From contig JBAZVD010000001.1 in NCBI GenBank assembly GCA_041661065.1, positions 1,089,237 to 1,153,236 of the forward strand: a DNA stretch of 64,000 nucleotides, written 5' to 3'. Positions 4,573 to 62,375 of this stretch are shown here, in pieces (position 1 is the stretch's first letter; each line of letters begins with the position of its first letter). The stretch is from Candidatus Peribacteraceae bacterium. Its GTDB lineage: Bacteria > Patescibacteriota > Gracilibacteria > Peribacterales > Peribacteraceae. The position numbers were made by a program, and so were the translations under genes. A model generated the notes under the pieces. The model was not told the origin of the DNA. It did no database searches and worked only from the letters and a program-made list of their open reading frames with translations.

Positions 4573-4605
4573 CTTAATTCCTAATTCTTCATTCTACATT
4601 CTTCC
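4573..4605. repeat. Solo heptamer-repeat arm (GAAT/ATTC family) overlapping the sufD stop
   Basis: CTTAATTCCTAATTCTTCATTCTACATTCTTCC is related to the arms at 30311-30393 and 51675-51752. It encodes the last residues (..ECRMKN*) of SufD. Confidence 0.7.
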
Positions 4606-5456
4606 ATCTCCCTCTCCAGCACGTCCCTCACTTTCTCATCCTCCACCTTCCCCAGCAATCCTCCCAGGAACCCCCGGATGTACATCCTGCGCGCTTCCTC
4701 CCGCGGGATGCCGCGCGAAGCGAAGTAGAAGAGCTCTTCCTCCGAAACCTTGGTGACGGTGGCGGTATGGCCTGCTTTGACGTCTTCCGTCTTGATGCGG
4801 AGCGCCGGCACGGCGTCCACTTTGGCGGAGGCATCCAGCATGAGCACGTGCTGCGTAAGGGACGCGGCCGTCCCTCCCCCACCCTCCCCGATCTCCATCA
4901 TCCCGTCGCACCGCACTTCCGCGCGCCCCTCCGCGATCCCGCGCATGGTCACATCACCGCCGCCATCCCGCGCCAGGAACACGTTGCGCACGGAGAGCTT
5001 CTGCACATCTTCCCCCGCGGCATGGAACACCCAATCCACCGAGCTCACGCCGCCCGCGCCCTCCACCGTGGCCACCGCTTCCTGCTCCACCCCCCTCCCG
5101 CCCAACGTGACGTTGAGAAGGCGGCACACGGCTCCTTCCCCCACCCTGATACGCTGCGTGATCTTCGCACGCCCCAAGCCCGAGGCAAGGACAATGAGGG
5201 CGAGCGATGATGTTGCCGCAAGCGTGACATCGAGATTTTTCTCCCCCTCAACACCCGAGGGAAGCGTGAGGAACACTGTGGCGCGTGACCCTTCCTCCGC
5301 ATGGACCGTGACGGATTGCGGGGATTCCCAGGGGAGCGTGACCGTACCGGGTATCTTCTTCCCCCGCCCGATGACCCACCGTCCATCGCCCTCACCGCGG
5401 ATGCCGGAAGGCAGGCCCGTTGATGTAGAGGCAGACGTCACATCAGCAGTGTACAT
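4581..5456 (-). CDS. sufD: Fe-S cluster assembly protein SufD (short form)
   Basis: The C-terminal motif VSEEELFYFASRGIPREEARRMYIRGFL is typical of SufB/SufD, on a beta-helix-like G-rich body. ATG at 5456 (MYTADV...). Confidence 0.8.
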   Translation of the reverse strand: MYTADVTSASTSTGLPSGIRGEGDGRWVIGRGKKIPGTVTLPWESPQSVTVHAEEGSRATVFLTLPSGVEGEKNLDVTLAATSSLALIVLASGLGRAKITQRIRVGEGAVCRLLNVTLGGRGVEQEAVATVEGAGGVSSVDWVFHAAGEDVQKLSVRNVFLARDGGGDVTMRGIAEGRAEVRCDGMMEIGEGGGGTAASLTQHVLMLDASAKVDAVPALRIKTEDVKAGHTATVTKVSEEELFYFASRGIPREEARRMYIRGFLGGLLGKVEDEKVRDVLEREMEECRMKN

Positions 5457-5714
5457 GCCTCCCCCGTGCGGAGTATCGTGGACACACCTTATGAGCGAAT
5501 CCCAGCGCTTCTTGCCGTTTGCGGAAACCCCTCCTGCGCCCGAGGGGGAACGGCAAAATGAGACGAACGGGAACCACGATGATGGGGAAGCGATGGCGAG
5601 AATCATCAAGAGCCACCAAGCGGCGGAAGCCCTTTTCCGCAGGGTTCCAGCGGCTCAATGGACACAATGGGCCTTATCCCAAAACAAGCGCAGCCAGAGG
5701 GCGAAAAGATGATA

Positions 5715-5744
5715 TTGACGTGTAATTTTATTAGTGTTTAATAT
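5715..5744 (+). promoter_or_regulatory. Sigma70-like promoter; the -10 box ends 4 nt before an ATG (leaderless candidate)
   Basis: TTGACG (5715-5720), 18 nt spacer, TAATAT (5739-5744), then TCAT and the ATG at 5749. Confidence 0.45.
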
Positions 5745-5748
5745 TCAT

Positions 5749-5946
5749 ATGGCTGACAATGCTGTTAAGGAATGGGGTGGGTGGGACGCGTACTTGGAGG
5801 AAGAAGAGGAAAGGGCACGGCAGGCGCTTGCGCAGAAAGCGAAGACAGCGCAACCGTCGCCGATGGTGAGCGGCGTGCAATCGGTGACGCACGAATACCA
5901 AAAACTTCTGTTCTCCGATAGGGGAACAGAGACAGGCACGCAATAA
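5749..5946 (+). CDS. Small hypothetical protein (65 aa)
   Basis: ATG at 5749 (MADNAVKEWGGWDAYLEEEEE...), immediately downstream of promoter-like boxes. Confidence 0.35.
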   Translation: MADNAVKEWGGWDAYLEEEEERARQALAQKAKTAQPSPMVSGVQSVTHEYQKLLFSDRGTETGTQ

Positions 5947-6008
5947 AAAAATGAAAGAGAGTACATCACGCGCTACTGCCAACGGCACTGATGGAACGAC
6001 ACGTCCTT

Positions 6009-6476
6009 TCAGTCATTCCTCCGTACTGTTTCCACCATTTCTTCCCGCACACGGCTCATGGGCTCTTGGACGGCGGTATTGCGCGGTTGGTTCGTTTGCT
6101 CTCCCATGAGAGCCGCCACTTGTACCGGAAGCATGGCGAGAATCCGACGGTAGGCATTGTCCGTATCCTCCCGGATCCCCGGCTCTTCCACCTTCACTTC
6201 ATGGTAAATGAGACACTGTTCCCATTCATGTCGCAACACTTCCTCGTATTTGGCGGAGAACTGTTCCCGGTCTCCCGCAGCCCGGCGCAGAAGAGCACTG
6301 GCATACTCCCTCGCCAAATCTCTTCGCAGATCCGCGGAGAGTTGACGGCTCCGTTCATTATTCCTCGACTTCCCCATACTCATCCTGTTTATCAAATCCT
6401 GCACCAGGATGGGGAGGTGTCGCTTGATACTGTCCATAACCGGAAACTCCAGTTGAGTGGATGGTGTGTTCTCCAT
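6009..6476 (-). CDS. Hypothetical protein (155 aa)
   Basis: ATG ORF between sufB and sufD on the same strand. TATAAT (reverse complement of 6485-6490) lies 8 nt upstream of the ATG. Confidence 0.55.
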   Translation of the reverse strand: MENTPSTQLEFPVMDSIKRHLPILVQDLINRMSMGKSRNNERSRQLSADLRRDLAREYASALLRRAAGDREQFSAKYEEVLRHEWEQCLIYHEVKVEEPGIREDTDNAYRRILAMLPVQVAALMGEQTNQPRNTAVQEPMSRVREEMVETVRRND

Positions 6477-6544
6477 ATAAGTATATTATATAATACTAGT
6501 TGAGTGTATGCCAGGTGTGGATTGTTGGCTTTCCTCTGACCTAA

Positions 6545-7945
6545 TCACCCCACGCCCCCCTCCATCTCCAGTTCTATCAATCTGTTCATCTCCACCGCAT
6601 ATTCCAGGGGAAGGTTCCTGATGATGGGCTCGATGAACCCGTTGACGATCATGGCGCGCGCCTGGTCCTCGGGGATGCCGCGGGAGGTGAAGTAGAAGAG
6701 GTCCTCCTCGGAGAGCTTCCCCACGCGCGCCTCATGCGCGACGGTCACGTCGTTGTTGCGGATACGGATGTCCGGGATGGTGTCCGTGCGGCTCTCGTCA
6801 TCGAGCAGGAGCGCATCGCATTCCACGTTGGAGGTGATGTCGTGCGCGCGGGGCCCCACCTGGAGCAGTCCGCGGTACACGCACACGCCCCCGCCGCGGC
6901 TGATGGACTTGGAGGTGACCTTGCTGGAGGTGTGCGGCGCGAGGTGGATGACCTTTGCGCCGGTATCCTGCCACTGGCCCGTGTTGGCGAACGCCAGGGC
7001 AAGGTGGTCGCTGCGCGCGCCCTCCCCCGTGAGCATGCTGCAGGGGTAGAGCATGGTGACGCCGCTCCCCATGTTCCCGCCCACCCACTCCATCGTCGCG
7101 TCCTTTTCCACGATCGCGCGCTTGGTATTGAGGTTATACGTGTCGCGGCTCCAGTTCTCCACGCTGGAATAGCGGACCTTTGCGCCGGGTTTGACGAAGA
7201 TCTCCACCAGCCCCGCGTGCAGCCCGATGGAGCCGTACTTGGGCGCGGAGCAGCCCTCAATGTAGTGCACCTCGCTCCCCTCCTCCGCGATGATGAGCGT
7301 GTGCTCGAACTGCCCCATGTTCATGGCGTTCATGCGGAAGTACGCCTGAAGGGGATCCGTGACCGTGACGCCCTTGGGGACGTAGAGGAAGGTGCCGCCA
7401 GACCATACGGCGCCGTGGAGCGCCGCAAATTTGTGATCCGCCATCGGCACGCACTTCATGAAGTACTGTTTGACGAGCTCGGGGTGCAGCCGCAGCGCAT
7501 CGTCCATGTTGAGGAAGATGACGCCCAGCTTCCCCCACTCCTCGCGCAAGTTGTGATAGATGACCTCGCTCTCGTACTGCGCACCCACCCCGGCGAGGAC
7601 CTTGCGCTCCGCTTCGGGAATGCCCAGCCGATCGTAGACGCGGCGGATCTCCTCCGGCACTTCCCCCCAATCGTCCGTATTCTCCGCCCCGGGGTGCGCG
7701 TAGTAGATGATCTTGTCGAAATCGAGCCCGGAAAGGTCCGCCCCCCACGTGGGCATGGGCTTTTCGTGGAAAACCTTGAGGGACGCCAACCGATGCTCCA
7801 GCATCCACTGCGGCTCATTCTTGTCCCCGCTGATCTTGCGCACCACCGCCTCGCTCAATCCCTTCGTGAGCCCCTCCGCGTAGGGGGCGGGGTTGGCCGT
7901 ATCAAAGACGGAACGGTCCAGGCCGGAGAAGATGGGCTTGGGCAT
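6545..7945 (-). CDS. sufB: Fe-S cluster assembly protein SufB
   Basis: MPKPIFSG...; conserved SufB blocks FEHTLIIAEEGSEVHYIEGCSAPKY, HLAPHTSSKVTSKSIS and LSEEDLFYFTSRGIPEDQARAMIVNGF. ATG at 7945; the ORF part upstream of it is repeat DNA. Confidence 0.95.
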   Translation of the reverse strand: MPKPIFSGLDRSVFDTANPAPYAEGLTKGLSEAVVRKISGDKNEPQWMLEHRLASLKVFHEKPMPTWGADLSGLDFDKIIYYAHPGAENTDDWGEVPEEIRRVYDRLGIPEAERKVLAGVGAQYESEVIYHNLREEWGKLGVIFLNMDDALRLHPELVKQYFMKCVPMADHKFAALHGAVWSGGTFLYVPKGVTVTDPLQAYFRMNAMNMGQFEHTLIIAEEGSEVHYIEGCSAPKYGSIGLHAGLVEIFVKPGAKVRYSSVENWSRDTYNLNTKRAIVEKDATMEWVGGNMGSGVTMLYPCSMLTGEGARSDHLALAFANTGQWQDTGAKVIHLAPHTSSKVTSKSISRGGGVCVYRGLLQVGPRAHDITSNVECDALLLDDESRTDTIPDIRIRNNDVTVAHEARVGKLSEEDLFYFTSRGIPEDQARAMIVNGFIEPIIRNLPLEYAVEMNRLIELEMEGGVG

Positions 7946-8012
7946 GAGGATAGTATGGTAGCAGATTCTCACTTTTCTGCATGCTCTTGAGGAAGTTGTA
8001 TGACATGGGGAT

Positions 8013-8234
8013 GGCCCCGCGCGCCACGGTCGGCGGAACAACATGAGGGAGAGCAGGGCTACAAGGAGAAGGTCGTCTTTCATTTCCACATGCGACGGGG
8101 CCCCGGAATTGGAACAACGGCTCAATGACATTTCCTTTGGCGCGCGGCCTGCCCACCATAGCTCCATCAGGAGCGAAGGTGGGAGCGCTTTTCTTTGCCA
8201 CTTTCTTTTGTCGCCCTGACAAAAGAAAGTGGGA
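8013..8234 (+). repeat. Dispersed structured element, copy B
   Basis: GGCCCCGCGCGCCACGGTCGG... CATTTCCTTTGGCGCGCGG, with the same 15-bp hairpin as copy A at 8198-8232. Carries an extra ~35-nt internal insertion. Confidence 0.85.
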
Positions 8235-8308
8235 AGACACAAGACAAAGCCTGCGAGCTGAAGATACGCTTGCTGGCTGTTGTGTATGTATATACATCGT
8301 CCATACAC

Positions 8309-8345
8309 TCATTTCCCATTTTGCATTTCCAATTTCTCATTTCCT
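8309..8345. repeat. Solo heptamer-repeat arm (AATGCAA/TTGCATT family) overlapping the antiporter stop
   Basis: CTCATTTCCCATTTTGCATTTCCAATTTCTCATTTCC matches the right arms at 20761-20807, 21209-21242 and 54518-54550. Confidence 0.7.
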
Positions 8346-10049
8346 CCCCATCACCGCCTTCATCCTCTTGTGGCTGAACTTCAAATGCTCCAAATGCCGC
8401 GCTTTCTCCGTCAAAAACTTCTTCAAGTCCAAACCATATTCCTCGATGAGGAGTGACGTGTGGTAGCCGCTCAGGAACTGCGGCGTGATCACGTAGCTGG
8501 CGCCCAACTGGTAGAGGTGCAGGGCTTCATCCACCTGCTGCGACACCACGATGACGATGGCGTCCTTGTTGGCGGCGCGCACGGCGCGGACGATGAGGAC
8601 GGTGGTGTCGAAATCGCGCAGCGTGGAGACCACCATTTTGGCGCGGCCGAAGTCCAATTCCTCCAGCAGCTCGGCATCGCCCAAATCGCCGTACTTGCAG
8701 TCGATCCCCTCCTTGGCCAATTCCGTGATGGCTTTGGGGTTGTAATCCACCACGAGGAAGGATTTCCGCATTTTCCGCAGGGCCTCCAGGACGTTGAGGC
8801 CGATGCGCTCGTACCCCAGCAGCAGGATATCGTGATCCTTCTGCCGCATGTGCAAGTGCTCATCCACCTTCTTCCCCTGACGCTCGAAGAGGGAGAGGGG
8901 CTGCTGCAGCCAGCCGTAGAGGCGCTCCGCATGGTGGATGCCGTACGTGGAGAGGGCGATGGTGAGCAGGCCCACGAAGGTGACGAAGGAGAGGACGGAA
9001 GGCGGCACGTGGCCGAGGCGTACGCCAAGGGCGACGAGGATGAAGGAGAATTCGCTCACCTGCGCCAAGGCCATTCCCGTGCGGAAGCCCGTGCGCTTGG
9101 TGTACCGCATGCGCCCCATGAGGAACATGATGATGAGCGGGTTGCCGACCAACACGAAGAGCGAGAACACCGCCACGGCGACCAGCTGCTTGGCCACGTC
9201 ATCCAGCACCAGCTGGGAACCGAGCAGCACAAAGAAGATGACGATGAAGAAGTCGCGCATTGGGCGCAGCTTGGCGCCGATCTCGAACCGGTAGGGCGAG
9301 AGGGAGAGGACGATGCCCGCCGCCAGCGCGCCGATCTCCATGGAGAGCCCGAGCGAAAAGCTGAGCGCCGCAATGGCGAAGCACCAGCCGATGGAGAAGA
9401 GGAGGAGCAGTTCCTGCGAGGCGGCCACGGCCTTGAGCAGCCAGGGAAGGAGGAAGAGCCCCGCCACCAGCAGCACCGACGCCAGCGTGAGGCCGCGCAG
9501 CGCCATGCGGCCCAGGATCATCTCCCAACCTTCCGTCCCGCCGTCCATGGAAGAGACGGCCACCAGGAGCAGCATGGCGATGACGTCCTGCACGATGAGG
9601 AACCCCGTGGAAATGCGGCCGTGGAGGGTTTCCAGTTCTCCTGCGTCCGTGAGGAGCTTCATGACGATGATGGTGCTGCTGAAGGTGAGCGCCACCGCGA
9701 CATAGAGCGAGACGACGGGCGCAAACCCCAGGAGGCGGCCCAGCACGTATCCCACCGCGGCGGTGAACACCACTTGTCCCATGCCCGCCACGAGCGACAC
9801 TTTGCCCACCTCTTTGACCACGCGGGGGTTGAGGTTCATGCCCACGAGGAAGAGGAGGAACGAGACACCCATCTGCGAGAAGAGTTCCAGCTCTTCCGTG
9901 GAATGGAGCAGGTTCAACCCGTAGGGGCTCACCACCAAACCCGCCAGCAAATAGCTGATGATCACGGGCTGCTTGAGCGCCCGCATGAGGAGCGCCAGCG
10001 CCACCACTGTGCACACCACGACCGTGACGGTGAGGAGGGTTTCTTGCAT
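8337..10049 (-). CDS. Monovalent cation:proton antiporter (CPA2/Kef-type) with C-terminal RCK/TrkA-N domain
   Basis: About 12 TM segments followed by a Rossmann-like ILLLGYERIGLNVLEALRK...VVDYNP domain. 570 aa. Confidence 0.85.
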   Translation of the reverse strand: MQETLLTVTVVVCTVVALALLMRALKQPVIISYLLAGLVVSPYGLNLLHSTEELELFSQMGVSFLLFLVGMNLNPRVVKEVGKVSLVAGMGQVVFTAAVGYVLGRLLGFAPVVSLYVAVALTFSSTIIVMKLLTDAGELETLHGRISTGFLIVQDVIAMLLLVAVSSMDGGTEGWEMILGRMALRGLTLASVLLVAGLFLLPWLLKAVAASQELLLLFSIGWCFAIAALSFSLGLSMEIGALAAGIVLSLSPYRFEIGAKLRPMRDFFIVIFFVLLGSQLVLDDVAKQLVAVAVFSLFVLVGNPLIIMFLMGRMRYTKRTGFRTGMALAQVSEFSFILVALGVRLGHVPPSVLSFVTFVGLLTIALSTYGIHHAERLYGWLQQPLSLFERQGKKVDEHLHMRQKDHDILLLGYERIGLNVLEALRKMRKSFLVVDYNPKAITELAKEGIDCKYGDLGDAELLEELDFGRAKMVVSTLRDFDTTVLIVRAVRAANKDAIVIVVSQQVDEALHLYQLGASYVITPQFLSGYHTSLLIEEYGLDLKKFLTEKARHLEHLKFSHKRMKAVMGRK

Positions 10050-10057
10050 TTCTGGAC

Positions 10058-10066
10058 AGTATAGCA
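10058..10066 (-). promoter_or_regulatory. Extended -10 box (TGCTATACT) 8 nt upstream of the antiporter ATG
   Basis: The reverse complement of 10058-10066 is TGCTATACT. Only GTCCAGA separates it from the ATG at 10049. Confidence 0.4.
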
Positions 10067-10320
10067 GAAATCGGCGCTCTGATCACCTTCTTTTGGCAAC
10101 CGTAAGCCATGAACATGAGTGCCAGACCGCAAGCGGTCCAGGGAAAGCCGCACGCAAGATCGTACTAGACATACATCAATAACATTATATATTGTATTTA
10201 CTGGAACCCGTTGGTTCCGGATCGGTCTTTGGCAGCAGCACCTTGTTTCCGCTTTCAGTTCTCGTGCGAGAATTGGGAAGCGGAAACAAGATCCATTACT
10301 CATGTATTGCGGAGGAACTC

Positions 10321-10668
10321 ATGGAAAACGACAACAACGTTACAGTGTCTGTGCCCTATACACGGAAGTGGGAATTGCCCTTTTTGCTGGCTGAAGGATG
10401 CCGGCGCGCAGGAACGATAGAATTGGATGAGCGATACTGGGCAGAACAACTCTACAGATCCCCGCACCGTGACTTCACGGCGATCTGTCTGTTGGGCCTT
10501 GTGAAGGTATCCTCTCACGATATTGCTTTGGAGATCTGCTTCACGTTCACGAAGAAGGAGGCTCCAGCATTCCTTCAAGTGCTCTCCGCATTATGCGACG
10601 CACAGGGCGTCGATAATGACGTAGCCCGTGCTATGCAAGAAGTCTGTGCAATCATCCTGAATGGATAA
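10321..10668 (+). CDS. Hypothetical protein (115 aa)
   Basis: ATG at 10321 (MENDNNVTVSVPY...), followed by a terminator at 10683-10710. Confidence 0.5.
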   Translation: MENDNNVTVSVPYTRKWELPFLLAEGCRRAGTIELDERYWAEQLYRSPHRDFTAICLLGLVKVSSHDIALEICFTFTKKEAPAFLQVLSALCDAQGVDNDVARAMQEVCAIILNG

Positions 10669-10682
10669 TGCTGCCAAAGAAT

Positions 10683-10710
10683 CCCCGCCGCTTCGGTGGC
10701 GGGGGTTTTT
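10683..10710 (+). terminator. Rho-independent terminator
   Basis: CCCCGCC-GCTTCGGT-GGCGGGG followed by TTTTT. Confidence 0.65.
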
Positions 10711-10822
10711 GTGTGTTGTTTCCTCCACCCCTACCCCCTCCTCCGCTGGAGGAGGGGAATGTTTGCTGTTTGTGTCCTCCCCTTCCTCCAAAGGAGGAAG
10801 GGGCCGGGGGATGGAGGAGTGA
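10711..10822. repeat. G/C-tract double-hairpin element (CCCCTCCCC family), intergenic copy
   Basis: CCTCCACCCCTACCC, CCTCCTCCGCTGGAGGAGG, spacer AATGTTTGCTGTTTGTGT, CCTTCCTCCAAAGGAGGAAGG, GGGGGATGGAGG. Same layout as 48525-48648 in the opposite orientation. Confidence 0.8.
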
Positions 10823-10871
10823 ACCAAGGAGGAAGGAGCTGGAGGATAGAGGAGCAAGCTACAATCCCCCC

Positions 10872-11426
10872 ATGCGCCCCTTGCACAGAAGCTTCTACGA
10901 CCGCGACACGGTGATAGTGGCGCAGGAGTTGCTGGGAAAACTCCTCGTCCGCCGCGACGGGGAGGTGGTGCGGGTGGGCAAGATTGTGGAGACGGAGGCG
11001 TACCTCGGCCCCCATGACTTGGCCGCGCACTCCGCCCGTGGACGGACGAAGAGAACGGAAGTGATGTTCGGGCCGCCGGGACACGCGTACGTGTATTTGA
11101 TCTACGGGATGCACCATTGCCTCAACGTGGTGACGGAGGGAGAGGGACACGCGTCGGCGGTGCTGATACGGGCGCTGGAGCCCGTGCAGAACCTGTTGGG
11201 ACGCTCAAGCGGCCCGGGGCTCTTATGCGCGGCGATGGGAATCGATCGCACATGGAACGGCCACGATCTCCTCTCCGACGATTTCTTCATTATGAAACCG
11301 GATGATCCCGACGAGCGCATCGTGATCATCAAGCGTCCGCGCGTGGGCGTGGGTTACGCCGGACGGTGGGCGAAGAGGTTGCTCCGGTTCTCCATCAAGG
11401 GGAACCCGTACGTTTCCAAGGCATGA
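10872..11426 (+). CDS. DNA-3-methyladenine glycosylase (MPG/AAG family)
   Basis: FYDRDTVIVAQELLGKLLV...VETEAYLGPHDLAAHSARGRTKRTEVMFGPPGHAYVYLIYGMHHCLNVV...AVLIRALEP. ATG at 10872. Confidence 0.9.
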   Translation: MRPLHRSFYDRDTVIVAQELLGKLLVRRDGEVVRVGKIVETEAYLGPHDLAAHSARGRTKRTEVMFGPPGHAYVYLIYGMHHCLNVVTEGEGHASAVLIRALEPVQNLLGRSSGPGLLCAAMGIDRTWNGHDLLSDDFFIMKPDDPDERIVIIKRPRVGVGYAGRWAKRLLRFSIKGNPYVSKA

Positions 11427-11432
11427 GCCCCC

Positions 11433-12185
11433 TCACTTCAACTCATACGTGAGCGTGACGTACGCCGTCACGTCCTGCTCGCCCGCGGGGAGCGGTACCG
11501 CCATTCCTGCAGCACTGTCCTCGGCGGCTGTTTCCATGGCCGCACGCGCATAGGGCATGGGGGGGATGACGCCGCCGCCTTCGTTGAACCCTTTGATCTT
11601 CCCCAGCCGCATGCCCAAATCCTTCGCCAGCGCCAGCGCCTTCTCCTTCGCCTGCGCAATGGCCTCCTCACGCGCTTCCGCCCGCAAGACCTCCGGGTCA
11701 TCGATGGTGTAGCTCACGTTCCCCGCCTGGTTGGCGCCCGCCGCAGTGGCCGCGCCCAGCACCGCGGACACCTTGTCCAGGTCCCGCACCTTCACGCGCA
11801 GCGTCTCCTGCGCCTGGAACCCGCGCGGAATCTGCCTGCCCTCATCCCAATCGTATTCGGGATTGAGGTAGAACTGCTCCGTGGCGATGTCCTTCTCCTC
11901 GATGCCCGCCTTTTTCACCGCCTCCATGATGTTGTCCATATCCTCCTTGAGCAATGCCATGGCTTCCGCCGCCGTGGCTTTGCGTCCCGTCTGCACCCCG
12001 AACGTCAGCTGCGCGATATCCGGCGCGGCACTCACCTTGCCTTCCCCGGAGACGGAGATGGTGACGGGGGTGGAATCGCGTGATTCCACGTACTTGCCGG
12101 CGAGGAAGAATCCGCCGCCGATGACGACGGCAAGGATCACGGTCCAGGTGATGTTGCGCATGGGAGGAGGGGGAAAATCAGACAT
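11433..12185 (-). CDS. SIMPL/DUF541 family periplasmic protein
   Basis: TM anchor, then ISVSGEGKVSAAPDIAQLTFGV...FYLNPEYDW...GFQAQETLRVKVRDLDKV...AREEAIAQAKEKALALAKDLG. ATG at 12185. Confidence 0.8.
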   Translation of the reverse strand: MSDFPPPPMRNITWTVILAVVIGGGFFLAGKYVESRDSTPVTISVSGEGKVSAAPDIAQLTFGVQTGRKATAAEAMALLKEDMDNIMEAVKKAGIEEKDIATEQFYLNPEYDWDEGRQIPRGFQAQETLRVKVRDLDKVSAVLGAATAAGANQAGNVSYTIDDPEVLRAEAREEAIAQAKEKALALAKDLGMRLGKIKGFNEGGGVIPPMPYARAAMETAAEDSAAGMAVPLPAGEQDVTAYVTLTYELK

Positions 12186-12258
12186 AACGAGACTATGGTA
12201 TCGCAAAAACCCCGCAGGATTGCAGTGACGAAACGGGCAACTGCAATGCAGTGACACT

Positions 12259-12555
12259 CTACAGGAAATGACCATCCTCCCTCCAAATAGGCCCTTTCGT
12301 CTCCCCTCTGAACTGGTCGCGCTCGCAATCCTCGGCATTCATCCCGTATATCGGTTCCCGCTCACGGGAACGGACCGCGCCGATGCGCGAGCCTGTCTCC
12401 GCATCCGGACCGGAGGGAGGCGCAAGACAAACGTAAAACCGCACGCCATACCTCTCGAGCAGCCTGCTGATCTTTTCCGCGACCTCCGGACCAAGCGCTT
12501 CCGCGGTTTCTCGGTCCATAATACCCGATGGGCATTCGGCTGCAGGCTGGGGCAT
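12259..12555 (-). CDS. Hypothetical protein (98 aa)
   Basis: ATG ORF filling the gap between sufC and the SIMPL gene on the same strand. Confidence 0.4.
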   Translation of the reverse strand: MPQPAAECPSGIMDRETAEALGPEVAEKISRLLERYGVRFYVCLAPPSGPDAETGSRIGAVRSREREPIYGMNAEDCERDQFRGETKGPIWREDGHFL

Positions 12556-12586
12556 GGGCGCAGTATCCGTCGCCCGTTGCAGAAAA

Positions 12587-13381: not shown

Positions 13382-13389
13382 GGGGAAAG

Positions 13390-13395
13390 ATTGTA
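13390..13395 (-). promoter_or_regulatory. -10 box TACAAT 8 nt upstream of the sufC ATG (leaderless candidate)
   Basis: The reverse complement of 13390-13395 is TACAAT, followed by CTTTCCCC and then the ATG (13381). Confidence 0.4.
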
Positions 13396-13470: not shown

Positions 13471-13505
13471 CCCTCCAAGGCTCCTTCCGCTACACTCTTC
13501 TCGCT

Positions 13506-13781: not shown

Positions 13782-13805
13782 GGACGCGGCACGCCGCGAC
13801 CCTCC

Positions 13806-15826: not shown

Positions 15827-15843
15827 AAAGGATAGTCCGCGAG

Positions 15844-16242: not shown

Positions 16243-16245
16243 ATA

Positions 16246-53563: not shown

Positions 53564-53606
53564 AGAGCAGGGGGAGCGCTGAGTGCTAGGGGTGATGGGA
53601 CGGGAA

Positions 53607-53690
53607 GAGTCCGAGGATTCCGAGGATTCCGAAGAAATACATGAAAAGTCCTCGGCATCGTCGGAATCCTCGGCATCCTCTCCACCGGAG
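53607..53690. repeat. Nonamer hairpin (CGAGGATTC / GAATCCTCG family)
   Basis: Left arm GAGTCCGAGGATTCCGAGGATTCCGAAG; right arm GTCCTCGGCATCGTCGGAATCCTCGGCATCCTC. Same family as 19781-19893. Confidence 0.9.
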
Positions 53691-53707
53691 AACCTTCGAT
53701 ACACTCC

Positions 53708-54477: not shown

Positions 54478-54550
54478 CTGAATGCAAAATGAATAAATGC
54501 AAAATGAAAAAGAGACCATTTCGCATTTCCAATTTCCCATTTTGCATTCT
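54478..54550. repeat. Heptamer hairpin (AATGNNA family)
   Basis: Left arm CTGAATGCAAAATGAATAAATGCAAAATGAAAAAG; right arm CATTTCGCATTTCCAATTTCCCATTTTGCATTC. Confidence 0.9.
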
Positions 54551-54553
54551 TTT

Positions 54554-56566
54554 CTACCTCAACAGGTCGATGACATAGATTCTCTTCTCATCCAACACAT
54601 ACAGGTGCGCTTCGTCGGGATCCACGTACAGGTCCTGCAGCTTGCCCACCTGGTCCCCCTCCAGCACGTACTGCCGCAAGTAGGAGGATTCGCCGTTCGG
54701 CCCGCCGTCCGACGTGACGCTGATGCGGCGCTTCTCGGGATCCAGGAAGTAGAAGTTGCTGTCCGACATCTTCACGATCTTCGTGGCGGTCTTGAAGGTG
54801 CCGTCCGGCGCATGGGTGATGGCGAAGGGCTTGGCCTCCCCGCGCATCATCTTCACCACGGCGCCGCCCTCCTTGAGCACGTAGATGCTGCTGTCGATGG
54901 TCATGTCCAGCGCGCCCGTAAGGTCGCCGCTCACGTTGTACTGCACGGCCGCGCCATAGCGGTTGTTGAGCCGCTCGTACTTCATGATGTTGTTGTCCAC
55001 CCCCAGGATGTAGAGGTACCGCAGATACGTCTCCATGTCCTTCCCCGTCACCCAGCCGGAGAGGTCCTCCGTCTTCATGGAAACGGGCTGGCTGCCCTGG
55101 AGCTCCAGGATGGAATTGCCGGTGGTGAGGAACGCCTGCGCCTTGAACCGCGGGAACGACACGCCGTCGATGATGAGGCCGTCCTCCGTGAGGGTGCGTG
55201 GGTCATCCACGCCGTTGAGGAGGACGTGGTACCACTCCTCCCGGTCGAACACCACGAACTCCCCGTCCGCGATGCCGATCATCCCTTGGGCGGAGACGTC
55301 GGAGTTCTTGGCGGCCAGGTTGACGAGCACGCGCGGCGAGAGGCGCGTGATGTTATTGATCTCCTCCTTCTTGCTGCGGATGCGGTCGAGAAGGTCCAGC
55401 GCCTGCACGCGGAAGAGGCCGCTCTCGTTGTCCATCACCTGCTTCGCCCAGGCGTCGGCGCGCTGCAGGATGTCGTTGGCGGCGTCGGTATCGCCGGCGA
55501 TGCGCCGGTTGTCCGCGGTCTTGATCTCTTCGTTGATCCGATCCACGAGCGTGGAGAGTTCCGCGCGCGTCTTGCTCCGCTGGCTGGTGATGGAGAGCTT
55601 GACCACGAGGAAGATGACCAGGAAGGCGGCCAGCGCCCCCGCGAGCAACAGGAAGTGCGCGCGCCTCTTGCGTTGCGGATGCTTGAGGTCCGCCATGAAA
55701 TCGGATGCCTTCTCCCTCATGGTCTGGACGTGCGTGGAGGTCTTGCCCAGCTTCCCCAGCCCCGTGCGCGCCCACCGCGCCACCACGGGCGCCGCCAGCG
55801 CCCCCGCCCTCTTGAGGGAGGAGGAGACCTTGTGGAGCGAGGAGGGAACCGAGAGGGGGATCCTCCTCCCGGAACGGCGGCTGGGCAGCAGGCGGCCGCG
55901 GCCCGGCCCCGCGTACCCTTGCCGGGGCGGGATGACCTCCTTCGACTCCATCGGTGAACCGGATGCGACCAGCGCCAGCGCGGCCGGCTCCTCTTCCGCT
56001 TCCAGCCGCATGGCGATGTCCCGCAGCGCCCCCTCCCCCCGCTGGAACGTCATCTGCGCCAACTGCGCGGGAGTGAAGGCGCGCAGCAGCCGCTGCGTGG
56101 CGACCACCACCGTATCCTGCGCCTCCAGGGCACCGCTCGAAATGTGAACGAATGCGGAAAGAGGTTTGCCCCGCGTGTACTCCGTGATCTGTGTGGCGGC
56201 TCCGTGGCGCACCAAGTACGCCTCGCCGCGGCCGGCGTGGGAGACGTGCAGCGCCCCGTCCTTCTCCACCACCGCCACAATGGCATGCACCTCGTCCATG
56301 GTCCGCGCGAGCAGGAGCCCCTTCATGAGCCCGTTCAGTTCCTTCAGTGTCCCGTCGAGCCGGCTCCATGCATCCCCGTCGGTATCCAGCAGCGCATGGC
56401 GAATGACGTTCTCGCATTCGTCCGAGAACGCCTTGGCCTGCCGCTCTTCGGCATACACCTGCAGGAGGAGCAGCACGGTTTCTCCGCTCTTGCTCGTCAA
56501 CGAGCGCGAGAGCAGCGCCTGAGCGCCATCCGCTTGCGCGATGCCTGTCTGGACAGAGAGGTCCAT
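54554..56566 (-). CDS. Large hypothetical membrane protein (cytoplasmic N-domain, one TM, beta-rich C-domain)
   Basis: 670-aa ATG ORF. The N-domain is weakly PP2C/SpoIIE-like (..VSHAGRGEAYLVRHG..GALEAQDTVVVATQRL..). A TM segment FLLLAGALAAFLVIFLVV is followed by a repeat-like beta-rich C-terminus. Confidence 0.65.
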   Translation of the reverse strand: MDLSVQTGIAQADGAQALLSRSLTSKSGETVLLLLQVYAEERQAKAFSDECENVIRHALLDTDGDAWSRLDGTLKELNGLMKGLLLARTMDEVHAIVAVVEKDGALHVSHAGRGEAYLVRHGAATQITEYTRGKPLSAFVHISSGALEAQDTVVVATQRLLRAFTPAQLAQMTFQRGEGALRDIAMRLEAEEEPAALALVASGSPMESKEVIPPRQGYAGPGRGRLLPSRRSGRRIPLSVPSSLHKVSSSLKRAGALAAPVVARWARTGLGKLGKTSTHVQTMREKASDFMADLKHPQRKRRAHFLLLAGALAAFLVIFLVVKLSITSQRSKTRAELSTLVDRINEEIKTADNRRIAGDTDAANDILQRADAWAKQVMDNESGLFRVQALDLLDRIRSKKEEINNITRLSPRVLVNLAAKNSDVSAQGMIGIADGEFVVFDREEWYHVLLNGVDDPRTLTEDGLIIDGVSFPRFKAQAFLTTGNSILELQGSQPVSMKTEDLSGWVTGKDMETYLRYLYILGVDNNIMKYERLNNRYGAAVQYNVSGDLTGALDMTIDSSIYVLKEGGAVVKMMRGEAKPFAITHAPDGTFKTATKIVKMSDSNFYFLDPEKRRISVTSDGGPNGESSYLRQYVLEGDQVGKLQDLYVDPDEAHLYVLDEKRIYVIDLLR

Positions 56567-56636: not shown

Positions 56637-56720
56637 CGTATTACGTATTGCGTAGTGCGTAGTACGTTGGCGCAAGAAGAACGAAGATACGCAATACGCC
56701 ATACATAATACGTAATACTC
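56637..56720. repeat. Heptamer hairpin (CGTANNN / ATACGNN family) upstream of RNase J
   Basis: Left arm CGTATTACGTATTGCGTAGTGCGTAGTACG; right arm GATACGCAATACGCCATACATAATACGTAATAC. Confidence 0.9.
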
Positions 56721-58836: not shown

Positions 58837-58903
58837 ATACGTAATACGAAATACGTGATACGGTATACGTGTCCGTATTTTGTATTACGTATTACGTATT
58901 TCG
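58837..58903. repeat. Heptamer hairpin (ATACGNN / CGTATNN family) downstream of RNase J
   Basis: Left arm CATACGTAATACGAAATACGTGATACGGTATACG; right arm CGTATTTTGTATTACGTATTACGTATTTCG. Confidence 0.9.
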
Positions 58904-59620: not shown

Positions 59621-59857
59621 ATGTGGGACATCATCGCTCAAATCTCCATCTCGATTTTCGGCGCCATCTCCGTGTTCCTCGTCGCACGCAATAACCGCTG
59701 GGGATGGGTCATGGGGCTGGCCATGCAGCCGTTCTGGCTGATCACCTCCTACCAGCATGAGCAGTGGGGCGTATTCTTCGTGAGCTTCCTGTACCTGGGA
59801 ACCTGGGCATACGGAACGTACCGGTGGTTCTTCCTGAAGAAGGAGCCCTCACGCTAG
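59621..59857 (+). CDS. Small 3-TM membrane protein (possible half-size PnuC-like unit)
   Basis: The 78-aa sequence contains ..LVARNNRWGWVMGLAMQPFW..FLYLGTWAYGTYRWF. The pattern is R/K-x3-W-x-W ... G-x3-W. Confidence 0.55.
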   Translation: MWDIIAQISISIFGAISVFLVARNNRWGWVMGLAMQPFWLITSYQHEQWGVFFVSFLYLGTWAYGTYRWFFLKKEPSR

Positions 59858-60111
59858 CGGTATGCATCCCTCCGATGACCGACACGCAGGACGGTGACGG
59901 TCACGATCTCCTTCTCAACCGTATAGATGATGCGGTACGGCCAGACACGCAGGGACCACTTCCCTTCCCATTCGCCCTGGAGCTTCTTCCCCTGGAAGGG
60001 ATCCGTCCCCAGAGAGCCCATCGCCGCCACCACGCGCTCCCGGTCCTTGGCAGGGAGGGATTGTAACTCCTTCCGCGCGCGCCGGGTCATGAATACCCGA
60101 TACATCTTCAT
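59854..60111 (-). CDS. RelE/ParE-family toxin
   Basis: The 85-aa sequence contains ..ARKELQSLPAKDRERVVAAMGSL..LQGEWEGKWSLRVWPYRIIYTVEKEIVTVTVLRVGHRRDAY. 4-nt overlap with the upstream antitoxin. Confidence 0.85.
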   Translation of the reverse strand: MKMYRVFMTRRARKELQSLPAKDRERVVAAMGSLGTDPFQGKKLQGEWEGKWSLRVWPYRIIYTVEKEIVTVTVLRVGHRRDAYR

Positions 60112-60377
60112 AGGCCGAGCTGTTTGTGGACTTCCTCCAGGCTAACCACCTCGCCCCTCTCCTTCTCCCTCATCCCCTCTTGAATGGCGGCAACCTCTTC
60201 GGGATCAGACATGATGTCCAAGGTTTCCATCCACCCCTCAAATTCATCTTCACTCATCAGGACATATCCCTTATCACCCTCGTGGATAATTTTGACGTAC
60301 ACGCCGGGGGTCTTTGCCATCTTGAGGAGGGCAAAGAAATTCTTCCGCGCATCCGTTGCTGTGAAGGTTTTATTCAT
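60108..60377 (-). CDS. Phd/YefM-family antitoxin
   Basis: MNKTFTATDARKNFFALLKMA...GYVLMSEDEFEGWMETLDIMSDPE. Confidence 0.85.
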   Translation of the reverse strand: MNKTFTATDARKNFFALLKMAKTPGVYVKIIHEGDKGYVLMSEDEFEGWMETLDIMSDPEEVAAIQEGMREKERGEVVSLEEVHKQLGL

Positions 60378-60513
60378 ATGTACATGATAGCGTACATATC
60401 ACGATGCTGCAAGAGGATTGCCTGGAACCGCGCACAACTCACGTACCAAGCGGGGGTTCCACCGTTGCCGCAACGGCAGAATGCGCTAGAGTTGTGCCAC
60501 CGGAGTACATCGT

Positions 60514-60732
60514 ATGAATGAACGCATACCCAACATGGAGCATGGCCACACCGAAGAGGCGGCGCCGGATCGGAAGCTGCCTCAGGATTATTCAACGCCC
60601 GAGCAGAAGATCCAGGCCAGGAGACGATTAATTGAGTGGGTTCTGGATCGATCCAGAGCTGGCGAGATTAGCCTCGAGCAAAGGAGCGAGATACTTGCTA
60701 ACATTTGGCCGGTTGATTTAGATCAGCCTTAG
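60514..60732 (+). CDS. Hypothetical protein (72 aa)
   Basis: ATG ORF with no recognisable motif. Confidence 0.35.
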   Translation: MNERIPNMEHGHTEEAAPDRKLPQDYSTPEQKIQARRRLIEWVLDRSRAGEISLEQRSEILANIWPVDLDQP

Positions 60733-60790
60733 CCTCAGCCGGAAGAACGAGCGAACCCCTCCCGGTGATGGAAGGTGGCGGCTCGCGCAT

Positions 60791-61141
60791 TCACTCCTGC
60801 GCGCGCCCGATGGCATCCAACTCCTCCAGCATCCGCCGCACGTACTCGCGCTCCCTCATGCGGCAGGGAAGGTTGTCCCATGCAACACCCAATGCCTCGT
60901 ACGTATTGAACGCGAACTCTCTTCGCAATCTCCTGGCTTTGGGACCTTTGCGTCCTTCGAGCTTCAACAAGCAATTCTTGCAGGCAATACAGAGCTGGCG
61001 GGCAATCACGGCTATGCGCTGCATGCTGGCTTCCCGCAGGCAGTCTTTATCGTCTTCCGTCCTTCGCTCCGCCAACGTCTTGAGTTGGGCGAGGCGCACG
61101 CGGTAGGAAAGAAGGGATTTGCTCATGGAAGGGAACGGCAT
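60791..61141 (-). CDS. Hypothetical protein (116 aa)
   Basis: ATG at 61141 (MPFPSMSKSLLSYRVRLAQLK...), downstream of pyrC on the same strand. The ORF part upstream of it overlaps pyrC. Confidence 0.45.
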   Translation of the reverse strand: MPFPSMSKSLLSYRVRLAQLKTLAERRTEDDKDCLREASMQRIAVIARQLCIACKNCLLKLEGRKGPKARRLRREFAFNTYEALGVAWDNLPCRMREREYVRRMLEELDAIGRAQE

Positions 61142-61179
61142 AGTACCCCCTTGTATTCGTCCTTCAAGGGAATTTTCTC

Positions 61180-62340
61180 CTACCCCATCACCTTCCCCCT
61201 CACCTTCCACCCTTCGTACGGGGTCCACCCGCACTTCGAGTGCAACTCCTTGCCGCGGATCACCCACTCTTCGTCGGTGTTGATGGTGAGGGCGGACGCG
61301 TCGCTCTTCCCAAGGGAAAGGATCCGATTGGGATTCTCAAAGCAGAGGCGGCGAATGTCATCCAACGAGAGGTTGTAGGGGGTAGGTTGTAGGTTGTAGC
61401 CCGGCCAGTTTCCTGCCGCAACAGTGAGCAAGAGAGGCAGCATGGTCTCCACGCCGGGGACGCCGCTGGGCGCTTGGAGCGGATCGGGGTTCTTCTTCTC
61501 CTCGAGCGTGTGCGGCGCATGGTCCGTGGCGATGCAATCGACCGTACCGTCGGCGATCCCCTCCCACAGCGCCGCTTGGTCTTCCGCCGTGCGCAGCGGC
61601 GGGTTCATCTTCCCCAGTGTGCCGAGGGAAGGATAATCATCGGCGGTGAGGAAGAGATGGTGGGGCGCAACATCGCACGTAACACGCACCTTCTCTTCCT
61701 TCGCTTCGCGGATGAGCGCGAGGGCCGCCGCGGTGGAGACATGCGTGGGGTGCACGTGCGCGCCCGTCTTGCGGGAGAGAGCGAGAAGGAACCGGACGGC
61801 GGCTTCCTCGCTCTCGGGCGGACGCATCATGGAGTGCGCTTCCACGCCTTCTTCCCCCACGCACGCCTTTGCAGCCGCAGCATTGATCTCCGCATCTTCG
61901 CAGTGGCACACCGCCACCATCCCCTGTTCCGCGCAGTACGTGAGGACCTCCTCTGCGAGCGCGGGATCGATCTTCTGGTTCCCCGTGGAGTGGTCCAGGA
62001 ACAGTTTGACGCCGCAGCAACGCATACGCAGACGCATGAGCGCGGGATCGGTGCAGAGCTTCCACAGTTCCTCCAGGTGTTCCTTCGCCGTGACGCCGAA
62101 GTAGAAACGGATGTCCACGTCCTTGATCCGCGCGGCACGCTCCGCCTTCTCCTCCAGCGCCGCGACGGTGACGGTGGGAGGAACGGCATTGGGCATGTCG
62201 CAGACGGTGGTGATGCCCCCCGCGAGCGCCGCACGCGTTTCCGTCTCCATATCCCCCTTGTGCGTGAGCCCCGGCTCCCGCAGATGGACGTGCATGTCGA
62301 TCAAGCCCGGCAGTACGGCTGTGTTCATCTCGGGGATCAT
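61180..62340 (-). CDS. pyrC: Dihydroorotase
   Basis: LIDMHVHLREPG (HxH metal site), ALAGGITTVCDMPN and ATDHAPHTLEEK. Confidence 0.92.
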   Translation of the reverse strand: MIPEMNTAVLPGLIDMHVHLREPGLTHKGDMETETRAALAGGITTVCDMPNAVPPTVTVAALEEKAERAARIKDVDIRFYFGVTAKEHLEELWKLCTDPALMRLRMRCCGVKLFLDHSTGNQKIDPALAEEVLTYCAEQGMVAVCHCEDAEINAAAAKACVGEEGVEAHSMMRPPESEEAAVRFLLALSRKTGAHVHPTHVSTAAALALIREAKEEKVRVTCDVAPHHLFLTADDYPSLGTLGKMNPPLRTAEDQAALWEGIADGTVDCIATDHAPHTLEEKKNPDPLQAPSGVPGVETMLPLLLTVAAGNWPGYNLQPTPYNLSLDDIRRLCFENPNRILSLGKSDASALTINTDEEWVIRGKELHSKCGWTPYEGWKVRGKVMG

Positions 62341-62344
62341 ATCG

Positions 62345-62375
62345 CAGATTCGTTTCTTCGTTTATTCGTTTATTG
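62345..62375. repeat. Solo heptamer arm (TTCGTTT family) just upstream of the pyrC ATG
   Basis: GATTCGTTTCTTCGTTTATTCGTTTATTGG is related to the arms at 50975-51076. Confidence 0.65.

Follow-up and report, generated by a model that had tools for sequence, protein, structure and literature searches.

The window, the whole 64-kb stretch of DNA analysed here, comes from a groundwater bacterium of the Peribacteria, a lineage of the candidate phyla radiation (CPR). Hairpin elements were found between its genes and also in-frame in essential proteins. A preliminary description had reported inverted repeats at most gene boundaries. All the coordinates it listed contain the sequences as described, but this frequency was overstated, since roughly 15 of about 50 junctions carry an element and about eight copies lie within ORFs.

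Elements in spacers and within genes

Several copies occupy the space between divergent starts. CGTATNN hairpins separate an ABC ATPase (12587-13381, −) from a 2Fe-2S ferredoxin (13506-13781, +) at 13396-13470, and ORF 54554-56566 (−) from RNase J (56887, +) at 56637-56720. An AATGNNA hairpin with GAATGCAAAAT termini (20705-20807) lies between TsaB and a GT2 glycosyltransferase, and a GAAT/ATTC hairpin (30311-30393) between tRNA-Thr (30229-30303, −) and the RNase P RNA (30445-30899, +). These positions would suit regulatory protein-binding arrays or portable promoters, with each core recognised by a DNA- or RNA-binding protein or else supplying −10/−35 hexamers, and the inverted layout serving divergent genes. 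In addition, GAAT arms carry outward-facing CATAAT/CATACT hexamers, upstream of the RecR ATG by 8 nt and of the 5' end of tRNA-Thr by 9 nt, a TGnTAnnnT motif is conserved just upstream of starts in relatives, and the cores are conserved while spacer positions vary. However, a consensus promoter scan matched only 2 elements, promoter-like hexamers are absent from the GC-rich families, and orthologous promoters of relatives have no element or another core. Moreover, a genome of roughly 1.2 Mb would have to encode about ten readers to match about ten cores, and copies are translated in-frame in SecA, PurH, TsaB, the GT2 protein and a DinG-like protein. We therefore consider a regulatory role as the explanation quite improbable; the protein reading 7-nt steps that had been proposed is speculation.

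Other copies adjoin stop codons. A CAGCNNT composite hairpin (14684-14833) abuts the HolB stop codon (14834), a solo 9-mer array (CCTCTGCAT, 31013-31055) is separated by 2 nt from the stop codon of a histidine kinase, and a GAAT/ATTC hairpin (51675-51752) fills the entire spacer from the SmpB stop to the RecR start, leaving gaps of 0 and 3 nt to these codons. An AATGNNA hairpin with both conserved termini (54478-54550) follows the stop of ORF 54554-56566 (−) by 3 nt, and an ATACG/CGTAT hairpin of opposite arm polarity (58837-58903) follows the RNase J stop by 6 nt; an in-frame ATG a few nucleotides past the latter is likely the start of a HAD hydrolase. A CGAGAAA/TTTCTCG hairpin of irregular period (11, 7, 7) is located at the RecR stop (50975-51076). 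The start of many copies 0-6 nt past a stop codon (14833, 31055, 51752, 54550, 58837) and their long, stable stems are compatible with intrinsic (Rho-independent) or bidirectional transcription terminators, or with mRNA 3'-end stabilisers. However, no T-run follows the stems, a terminator scan hit no more than internal sub-hairpins in a few elements, and several copies are situated between divergent starts or within ORFs. By contrast, a canonical terminator with a GC stem and T-run is present at 10677-10710. Termination or stabilisation is thus a highly improbable explanation.

In the remaining spacers, a solo arm of the GAAT/ATTC family (4573-4605) overlaps the 3' end of a SufD-like ORF (4581-5609, −), and a solo AATG/CATTT arm (8309-8345) occupies the spacer from the Na/H-antiporter stop to the SufB start. 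A C-tract element at 10711-10822, upstream of or in the N-terminus of an MPG glycosylase ORF, consists of two short GGAGG/CCTCC palindromes with no clean heptamer array. A 9-mer hairpin (CGAGGNTNN, 19781-19893) separating the TsaB stop from the SecA start is homologous to another (CGAGGATTC, 53607-53690) at or upstream of the N-terminus of a prepilin peptidase ORF. A solo array of period 8 in Tandem Repeats Finder (TRF; ATTCGTTT, 62345-62375) lies 4 nt upstream of an amidohydrolase start.

Within ORFs, a CAGCNNT hairpin (17724-17803) is in-frame in SecA at about aa 641-667, a recurrent insertion hot spot, and a C-tract hairpin (20277-20369) is in-frame in TsaB at about aa 96-126. The GT2 ORF contains a solo CGTAT/ATACG array (20965-21004, about aa 86-99) and an in-frame AATGNNA hairpin (21141-21242, about aa 145-178) that interrupts its Pfam match. 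Similarly, the DinG-like exonuclease/helicase ORF contains an in-frame C-tract hairpin (26103-26183, about aa 608-634) and a solo AATG arm beginning with the family terminus CATGCAAAAT (26690-26720, about aa 804-814). Compared with solved PurH structures, the in-frame C-tract element of PurH (48525-48648) is inserted at query aa 220-266. A solo AGGTTGT array within the amidohydrolase ORF (61370-61399) had been missed in the preliminary description.

Periodicity and architecture of the arms

The enrichment of period 7 over controls was borne out in the window: 23 arrays with at least 15/21 lag-7 self-matches were detected, against a mean of 0.57 and a maximum of 3 in 30 Markov-1 controls. At a stricter cut-off of 17/21, there were 10 arrays versus none in dinucleotide shuffles. 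TRF found period-7 or period-9 arrays at most coordinates listed earlier. Moreover, most of the 25 longest inverted repeats (arms at most 160 nt apart) are array-built elements, frequently detected in several registers offset by 7 nt, and RNA folding z-scores were −3 to −6 in 10 of 12 elements tested. For the 9-mers, period 9 was recovered by TRF, but periods 3, 6, 9 and 12 are all elevated in the window, so that part of this signal is ordinary coding periodicity. The C-tract and CGAGAAA elements are hairpins, as described, but not clean heptamer arrays (TRF periods 7, 8 and 10).

The described constant core with 2-3 variable positions was confirmed by pooling arrays by family, which confined variation to 2-3 unit columns. 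For CGTAT|NN, mismatches per column were 5, 0, 1, 1, 4, 13 and 19 (p ≤ 0.0002), in a test that is slightly circular because the register was selected on the core. Between arms, 89% of core positions pair, compared with 56% of variable positions. One architecture is therefore common to families with different cores, implying a common generating process. As had been argued, divergence of a single MITE does not account for the families, since their cores differ, 302 arrays comprise 187 distinct consensus heptamers, and no target-site duplication was found at the elements.

An IVP gene between heptamer arms

A full-length element at 15844-16277 (−) has AGGACNN arms (15844-15876 and 16246-16277) around an ORF (15871-16242, −) that matches PF05635 (1.4e-32) and TIGR02436 (111.7 bits). 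Its product is the four-helix-bundle "23S rRNA intervening-sequence protein" (S23p, Avd-like; IVP). Tandem 7- or 8-mer arrays flank IVP homologue genes in 14 of 15 contexts from several phyla, mostly on both sides. AGGACNN arms with an IVP gene also occur at other Peribacteria loci, namely RecA|NUDIX (P. riflensis), after TopA (L165) and FtsZ|dUTPase (L170), and an AGGAC-armed hairpin without an ORF occupies the SecA hot spot of one relative (L084). AGGAC is the only family tied directly to IVP; for the CGTAT, AATG, GAAT, CAGC and C-tract families, common architecture alone suggests the link. Against an IVP-related origin of the hairpins, IVP is rare, with one gene in the 64-kb window and none in about 0.75 Mb of Peribacteria SecA loci, while hairpins are common. 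The window yielded no transposase, reverse transcriptase or other mobilising enzyme either, and IVP is not known to be a recombinase.

The preliminary description did not recognise the combination as a known element class. It does, however, match the arrays beside PF05635 genes, and 5' heptamers of the Coxiella intervening sequence (IVS) have been published (PMC4990558). The 23S rRNA IVS with an S23p/PF05635 ORF (Coxiella burnetii, Leptospira; PMC4990558) is among the closest known systems. [quoted passage not shown] The RNase III option raised earlier agrees with this literature: by analogy with rRNA IVSs, transcribed stems of the window elements would probably be RNase III substrates. As in element 15844-16277, the PF05635 ORF lies in the loop, and both are selfish insertions persisting where the host tolerates them. 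Unlike IVSs, the window elements are located not in rRNA but in intergenic spacers and, in-frame, within protein genes; nearly all are 70-150 nt long and without an ORF, and about ten cores occur in one genome.

Other systems resemble the window elements in part. Eukaryotic Foldback (FB) transposons have long terminal inverted repeats of tandem short subrepeats in copy-variable number, and most copies are non-coding, with few carrying ORFs. The window elements share these inverted arms and the usual lack of coding capacity, whereas FB transposons are kilobase-scale, have subrepeats of 10-31 bp and make target-site duplications. Correia/NEMIS MITEs of Neisseria are likewise small hairpin-forming repeats, transcribed together with genes and cut by RNase III, but they form a single family with a 26-bp terminal inverted repeat and a TA duplication and lack tandem heptamers. 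Rickettsia palindromic elements (RPE) in proteins add surface peptide segments. Several RPE families, reportedly described by Ogata et al. in 2000 and 2002, occur in intergenic DNA, RNA genes and in-frame in conserved proteins. This multiplicity of palindromic families, intergenic and in-frame, is shared with the window; RPE, by contrast, belong to a different phylum and have family-specific unique sequence of 100-150 bp, no tandem-heptamer arms and no link to a PF05635 gene.

Cyanobacterial STRR and other tandem heptamers extend a helix. STRR are tandem heptamer repeats, reportedly described by Mazel (1990) and Vioque (1997). Like the window arrays, STRR and the TAACTGA repeats of PMC4679880 are lineage-specific tandem heptamers abundant in intergenic DNA, and a 7-nt unit is proposed to arise by slippage (Mrazek 2007, cited through PMC4679880). 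Most of them are direct arrays that repeat one or a few near-perfect heptamers, whereas the window arrays are inverted pairs, degenerate at 2-3 positions, of many families and in-frame in proteins. REP/BIME/REPIN sequences are also short dispersed extragenic hairpins, non-autonomous copies in a system with one protein-coding partner, and REPINs are inverted doublets folding into long hairpins (PMC3733652, PMC3116915). Unlike the window elements, REPs bear a tag (GTAG or CGTC), depend on RAYT transposases for their movement (PMC3733652, PMC3116915), and have neither heptamer arrays nor in-frame copies; the window showed no such tag and no RAYT gene.

Insertion, copying and origin of the families

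The window elements are insertions. Comparison of orthologous loci, as proposed in the preliminary description, showed sites in other Peribacteria that are empty or occupied by a different family, and orthologous intergenic junctions without an element or with another core; at one locus, L168 has two more units than L163. The SecA site carries a strong hairpin in 8 of 26 relatives as well as in the window, with eight different repeat-unit cores across seven relatives and the window (TCAGC/GCTGA in the window versus TGAGC/GCTCA in L003). At the TsaB site, several relatives have P-rich/G-rich inserts, and L003 and L012 have a C-tract array. The ferredoxin|ABC junction carries CGTAT/ATACG in the window versus AGTAT/ATACT in L001. 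Different families at exactly the same site could alternatively reflect in-place turnover of one old insert.

Termini of the AATGNNA family are conserved (GAATGCAAAAT...ATTTTGCATTC). Its members have unrelated loops, which is unexpected under recent transposition of whole elements and counts against it. Near-identical copies occur at different loci within single relatives (L012 11950/12599/3863 and 7569/8899; L004 11930/17395), the near-identical arms spanning about 30 nt. Because family members have common termini and near-identical copies elsewhere in relatives, mobility or copying is supported, contrary to the earlier argument against it. The window families are thus dispersed, copied insertions rather than unrelated curiosities.

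An origin in place, with no mobility, is a possible but doubtful account: slippage favouring 7-nt steps would build arrays from local sequence, intramolecular template switching in quasi-palindromes would copy one arm into the other, and families would reflect convergent mutation or ectopic gene conversion. Among long simple-sequence repeats of prokaryotes, heptamers are the most frequent, an abundance attributed to polymerase slippage (Mrazek 2007, as reported in PMC4679880), and unit number varies among relatives, as among Coxiella strains (PMC4990558). The seemingly concerted change at the orthologous SecA site and ferredoxin|ABC junction (window versus L003 and L001), the diversity of consensus heptamers, the lack of target-site duplications and the unrelated AATGNNA loops also fit this account. 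It is opposed by the near-identical arms at separate loci of one genome, the termini conserved family by family, and the AGGAC arms accompanying the IVP gene at several different loci. Furthermore, slippage alone does not explain a fixed core with 2-3 varying columns family-wide.

On balance, we favour with modest confidence the reading that the window hairpins are a population of small foldback elements, mostly without a gene, and miniature kin of IVS-type selfish elements, whose full-length form would be the PF05635/TIGR02436 gene between inverted tandem-heptamer arrays. For such foldback elements, new copies would arise by a copy process acting on the hairpin itself, perhaps through an IVP-assisted route or through exchange between hairpins at stalled forks (by template switching or gene conversion), leaving no target-site duplication. 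Arms may grow and shrink in 7-nt steps by replication slippage, with complementarity maintained by hairpin-templated correction, and transcripts would form imperfect stems of 25-35 bp. Copies would survive only at tolerated sites: short spacers by stop or start codons, divergent promoter regions and, in proteins, surface loops where the frame happens to be open.

The heptamer-arm architecture is strongly enriched in CPR bacteria, with 0.94 inverted array pairs per 10 kb in the window, 0.44 in Peribacteria loci and 0.27 in other CPR loci versus 0.01 in non-CPR loci. Any benefit of the elements to the host would be secondary.

Heptamer periodicity and foldback structure

The repeat sequences named in the preliminary description were present wherever it had placed them, and TRF detected period-7 or period-9 arrays at most of these sites; one further array, at 61370-61399, had not been included. 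At a lag-7 self-match of at least 15/21, the window contained 23 arrays, compared with a mean of 0.57 in Markov-1 controls, and at 17/21 it contained 10 arrays and dinucleotide shuffles none. The predicted excess of period-7 signal over shuffled or Markov controls, a genome-wide expectation, therefore holds in this 64-kb window. Among periods not divisible by 3, none was raised besides 7 and its harmonic 14. Outside the heptamer families, short tandem repeats at 16481-16522 and 3688-3709 have periods of 19 and 11 nt and contain ATACGTACACA / CGTATACACAG.

Of the 25 longest inverted repeats whose arms lie within 160 nt, most were these elements. Several recurred at offsets of 7 nt, in keeping with arms built from tandem units, usually four to five per arm. 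RNA fold z-scores were between -3 and -6 in 10 of 12 elements. A naive per-array test for variable columns showed no signal, owing to dilution by the array flanks, and mismatches were pooled by family instead. After pooling, mismatches concentrated in 2-3 columns in every family tested (p ≤ 0.0002), with per-column counts of 5, 0, 1, 1, 4, 13, and 19 for CGTATNN, 13, 2, 1, 0, 2, 14, and 20 for CATTTNN, and 0, 0, 0, 3, 12, 2, and 11 for GAAT; the register was picked on the core, which somewhat favours this outcome. The proposed constant core with 2-3 variable positions was thus recovered. Moreover, complementarity between arms was 89% at core positions and 56% at variable positions.

Tandem-heptamer arms characterize most families, but the C-tract and CGAGAAA members are hairpins without a clean 7-nt period, and the 9-mer signal, although detected as TRF arrays, is partly coding periodicity. 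The elements had been placed at most gene boundaries; only about 15 of about 50 junctions carry one, and about eight elements lie inside ORFs.

The window has a G+C content of about 60% and carries the 3' part of a 16S rRNA gene, RNase P RNA, and tRNA-Thr, which were the only Rfam matches at gathering threshold; no element matched a known RNA family. The 16S part (1-982) is followed by ORFs without Pfam matches (1336-2751), and the 64 kb yielded no 23S rRNA gene, so the rRNA genes seem to be unlinked. The RNase P RNA (30445-30899) measures 455 nt against a 367-position model and has an extra hairpin of ~50 nt (~30611-30661, P12 region) and smaller insertions elsewhere. This hairpin is not a heptamer array, and the parallel with STRR in cyanobacterial RNase P RNA was therefore dropped as inapplicable here. 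Housekeeping genes (SufB, SecA, NusA, PurH, RecR, SmpB, and RNase J) are accompanied by type IV pilus genes, comprising pilin-like N_methyl ORFs (41177-42442 and 42559-43239), T2SSF (43291-45579), T2SSE (45563-47314), and a prepilin peptidase (52793-53704); three large ORFs without a Pfam match (33360-41813; 645, 988, and 705 aa) adjoin them. At 59621-60521, the 175-position model of the NMN transporter (PnuC-like) is matched over no more than 78 aa, and short ORFs in different frames come after the match, which may reflect a fragmented gene or a frameshift.

The intervening-sequence protein gene and its flanking arrays

The AGGANNT arms at 15844-15876 and 16246-16277, which can be read directly as terminal inverted repeats folding into a long stem, enclose an ORF (15871-16242, minus strand). 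This ORF matched PF05635, the 23S rRNA intervening-sequence protein (IVP), at 1.4e-32 and TIGR02436, a four helix bundle protein, at 111.7 bits; its match to the DGR accessory protein Avd was weak. PF05635 is considered Avd-like (PMC10053308). A solved relative, PDB 2gsc, has five chains, and its protein is described as a homopentameric toroid in Coxiella work (PMC4990558). Only this element of the window (15844-16277) holds a PF05635 ORF in its loop; the remaining copies lack an ORF and can therefore be only derivatives of an element of the intervening-sequence (IVS) type.

Tandem 7- or 8-mer arrays, mostly inverted, flanked IVP homologues in 14 of the 15 contexts compared (L numbers denote loci of relatives or of other IVP-bearing genomes). 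The flanking unit is AGGACNN in P. riflensis (between RecA and NUDIX), L165 (after TopA), and L170 (between FtsZ and dUTPase); TAGGGAN in L166, L119, and Melioribacter (L163, with its relatives L168 and L169); CTTAGAN in L172; CCCTAAA in L179; an 8-mer in L036, L026, and L033; and GATTCGT, in direct orientation on both sides, in L167 of Bacteroidales. The exception is L164, where the array scan of the IVP flanks was empty, with at most a few imperfect units. In L175, which has a truncated IVP copy, units were found in the downstream flank only. Unit number varies at one and the same locus, L168 having two more units than L163. A search of the literature returned no description of PF05635 genes as generally bracketed by heptamer arrays, or of ORF-less derivatives.

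Such a derivative is present at the SecA gene of relative L084, where an ORF-less hairpin has arms almost identical to those of the window IVP element; its loop reads ATG AAA GCG TAA and is taken as the remnant of a deleted ORF. In addition, L100 has a CGGGATT hairpin similar to the TAGGGAT arms that other IVP elements carry.

Two Peregrinibacteria MAGs carry an IVP gene between FtsZ and dUTPase, with TAGGGAT arms in L166 and AGGACNN arms in L170, and in the latter a TAGGGAT-like solo array lies directly downstream of the AGGACNN element, which hints that one element was replaced by another at this site. In the window, the SecA-HolB spacer (15827-16941) measures 1.1 kb, compared with 0-150 nt in many relatives, and contains the IVP element, a RelB/DinJ antitoxin gene (16282-16494, minus strand), and an unannotated 130-aa ORF (16537-16929, minus strand) that could encode the toxin partner. 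The spacer looks like a small mobile island, and the same junction is expanded in L001, L013, and L077 as well.

Reused insertion sites and repeat families

The linker following EKIAE in SecA is variable, occurs in all Peribacteria, and is missing from other bacteria. A strong hairpin was found at this site in the window and in 8 of 26 relatives. In the window and seven of those relatives it is built of repeat units, and the core is different in each: TCAGCNN in the window, GAGCGAT in L003, GAGACNN in L004, GAATCTN in L020, CGGGAC in L012, CCCCCTCCCCC in L013, AGGACNN in L084, and a weak CGGGATT-like array in L100, deduced from the encoded peptide only. The unit is 7 nt except in L012 (6 nt) and L013 (C-tract). 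Near its C-terminus, the SecA of L012 has a second insertion (12599-12634), a solo arm that is nearly the same as the left arm of the hairpin at its hot spot (ACGGGACCGGGACCGGGAACGGG).

TsaB is a second hot spot. P-rich or G-rich inserts occur in the window, L003, L005, L012, and L008, and they represent translated CCCCTCC/GGAGGGG arms, the C-tract array being visible at this position in L003 and L012. Furthermore, compared with M. tuberculosis PurH, PurH of the window contains an additional stretch of 47 residues (220-266), and the ferredoxin-ABC, HolB-TPR, and TsaB-SecA junctions are empty in some species and hold hairpins with different cores in others. The elements are thus insertions, and the comparison of orthologous loci revealed both of the differences expected of them, presence or absence between relatives and a change in unit number (L168 and L163). 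The window SecA is 65-75% identical to those of Peribacteria (Peregrinibacteria, CPR) MAGs, and SecA scans of genomes and metagenomes gave 82% amino-acid identity as the closest match, that is, no strain-level relative. No movement event was observable, because the closest SecA relatives are at most 82% identical, L005 and L081 are one and the same sequence, and what look like indels between L161 and L162 are stretches of N.

Where copies lie in frame, the frame used is open, and for the SecA and PurH copies it is the sole open frame of six. These in-frame copies, together with non-conservation at orthologous promoters, clash with a reading of the elements as regulatory arrays or portable promoters. 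That reading fits the copies located at divergent promoters and the CATAAT hexamers that face outward in the GAAT arms, but a scan for sigma-70 consensus promoters hit only two elements, and we regard the reading as very unlikely. The GAAT arms contain outward -10-like hexamers, CATAAT (51680-51685) at a distance of 8 nt upstream of the ATG of RecR and CATACT (30313-30318) at 9 nt from the 5' end of tRNA-Thr, and a TGnTAnnnT motif is conserved close upstream of several starts in relatives. These observations suggest that Peribacteria have mRNAs with a very short leader or none. That the elements act as intrinsic terminators is extremely doubtful, since their stems are not followed by a T-run and their locations do not fit. 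A true intrinsic terminator, with a 15-bp GC-rich stem and a T-run, lies at 10677-10710, directly before a C-tract element, and the start assigned to ORF 10668-11426 is therefore probably too far upstream; a Shine-Dalgarno-like AAGGAGGAAGGA follows this C-tract element at ~10826.

The elements form families. Alignment of the three AATG hairpins (20705, 21141, and 54478) revealed common termini, GAATGCAAAAT...ATTTTGCATTC, with unrelated loops and flanks, and alignment of the two 9-mer hairpins (19781 and 53607) revealed a 16-nt identical core. Near-identical arms at separate loci were also found in L012 (11950, 12599, and 3863; 7569 and 8899) and L004 (11930 and 17395). Across all loci, 302 arrays yielded 187 consensus heptamers, in agreement with the earlier argument that the families are not one diverged MITE. 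Generation of the hairpins purely in place would account for concerted changes between the window and L003 and L001, but it fails on the near-identical copies elsewhere and on arms that travel with the IVP gene, and is considered unlikely.

Period-7 arrays and inverted pairs numbered 3.6 and 0.94 per 10 kb in the window, 2.3 and 0.44 in Peribacteria loci, 1.7 and 0.27 in other CPR loci, and 0.48 and 0.01 in non-CPR loci. The trait was independent of G+C, which ranged from 38% to 64% across the loci compared. The non-CPR locus L048 (a Desulfobacterales MAG) has eight period-7 arrays at 7483-18175 (GTTTTCT, GTTTTCG, and CGTGGCC), some inverted kilobases apart, and its richness in heptamers may have arisen independently.

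Affinities and possible spread of the elements

Most economically, the elements can be interpreted as miniature foldback elements of the IVS/PF05635 type, most of which lack an ORF. In the Coxiella IVS, two or three GACAGAT units and a GACAGAA lie upstream of the S23p ORF, their count varies among strains, and the 5' cut of RNase III coincides with the start of the first repeat (PMC4990558). The window elements share the long stem formed by terminal inverted repeats and, in the one IVP element, the PF05635 ORF in the loop. In contrast to an IVS, which lies in an rRNA helix and is cut out with no rejoining of the ends, they are all intergenic or in ORFs; the 16S part fits its Rfam model without insertion, with no element within.

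Like MITEs, several copies have common terminal inverted repeats, both in the window alignments and in relatives. Unlike MITEs, they have no target-site duplication above chance: the best flanking direct repeats were 0-4 nt, no better than in 2000 random controls, and with such fuzzy boundaries short duplications could escape. The AGGAC family has a full-length partner with the same ends, whose ORF encodes a four-helix bundle and no known transposase. The GTAG/CGTC tag of REP/REPIN sequences is absent from the element ends, and no RAYT-like family was found among the scanned ORFs of the 64-kb window. TIGR arrays have units of about 36 nt with spacers and are thereby set apart. As in Rickettsia palindromic elements, a palindromic repeat is inserted in frame in conserved proteins, and as in STRR and long simple sequence repeats, 7-nt units are arranged head to tail above chance. 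Among long repeats of prokaryotes, those with a heptamer unit are the most common (Mrazek 2007, as cited in PMC4679880). The Peribacteria genome paper (PMC4736985) mentions neither these repeats nor RNases, mismatch repair, or transposases; in twelve proteins, it records indels that are tens of bp long.

For these IVS-type miniatures, we favour copying by hairpin-to-hairpin template switching or conversion, a route that would be consistent with the missing target duplications, with arms that stand alone, with loops unrelated to one another, with repeated use of sites, and with a separate set of cores in each genome. Arms may grow by slippage, and by analogy the stems may be processed by RNase III. 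A more specific scheme, which we consider quite unlikely to be right, is that the pentameric Avd-like bundle of PF05635 reads 7-nt steps, one subunit per heptamer, and mobilizes hairpins in concert with a reverse transcriptase or the replication fork, with RNase III releasing the hairpin RNA.

About three decades after IVS elements and their S23p/Avd-like gene became known, neither a mechanism of spread nor a function is, to our knowledge, established. The abundant ORF-less miniatures and the consistent association of PF05635 with 7- or 8-mer arrays make the question of IVS spread testable. Moreover, some of the lineage-specific peptide insertions in the CPR housekeeping proteins SecA, PurH, and TsaB can be traced to the elements as a concrete source, and the elements pose a practical problem by distorting gene calls and start-codon choices in CPR MAGs. 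If the scheme with PF05635 as reader of the 7-nt steps were true, IVS elements and their ORF-less miniatures would constitute a distinct, phylum-spanning class of prokaryotic mobile element, which would remodel CPR proteomes through in-frame insertion and punctuate operons.
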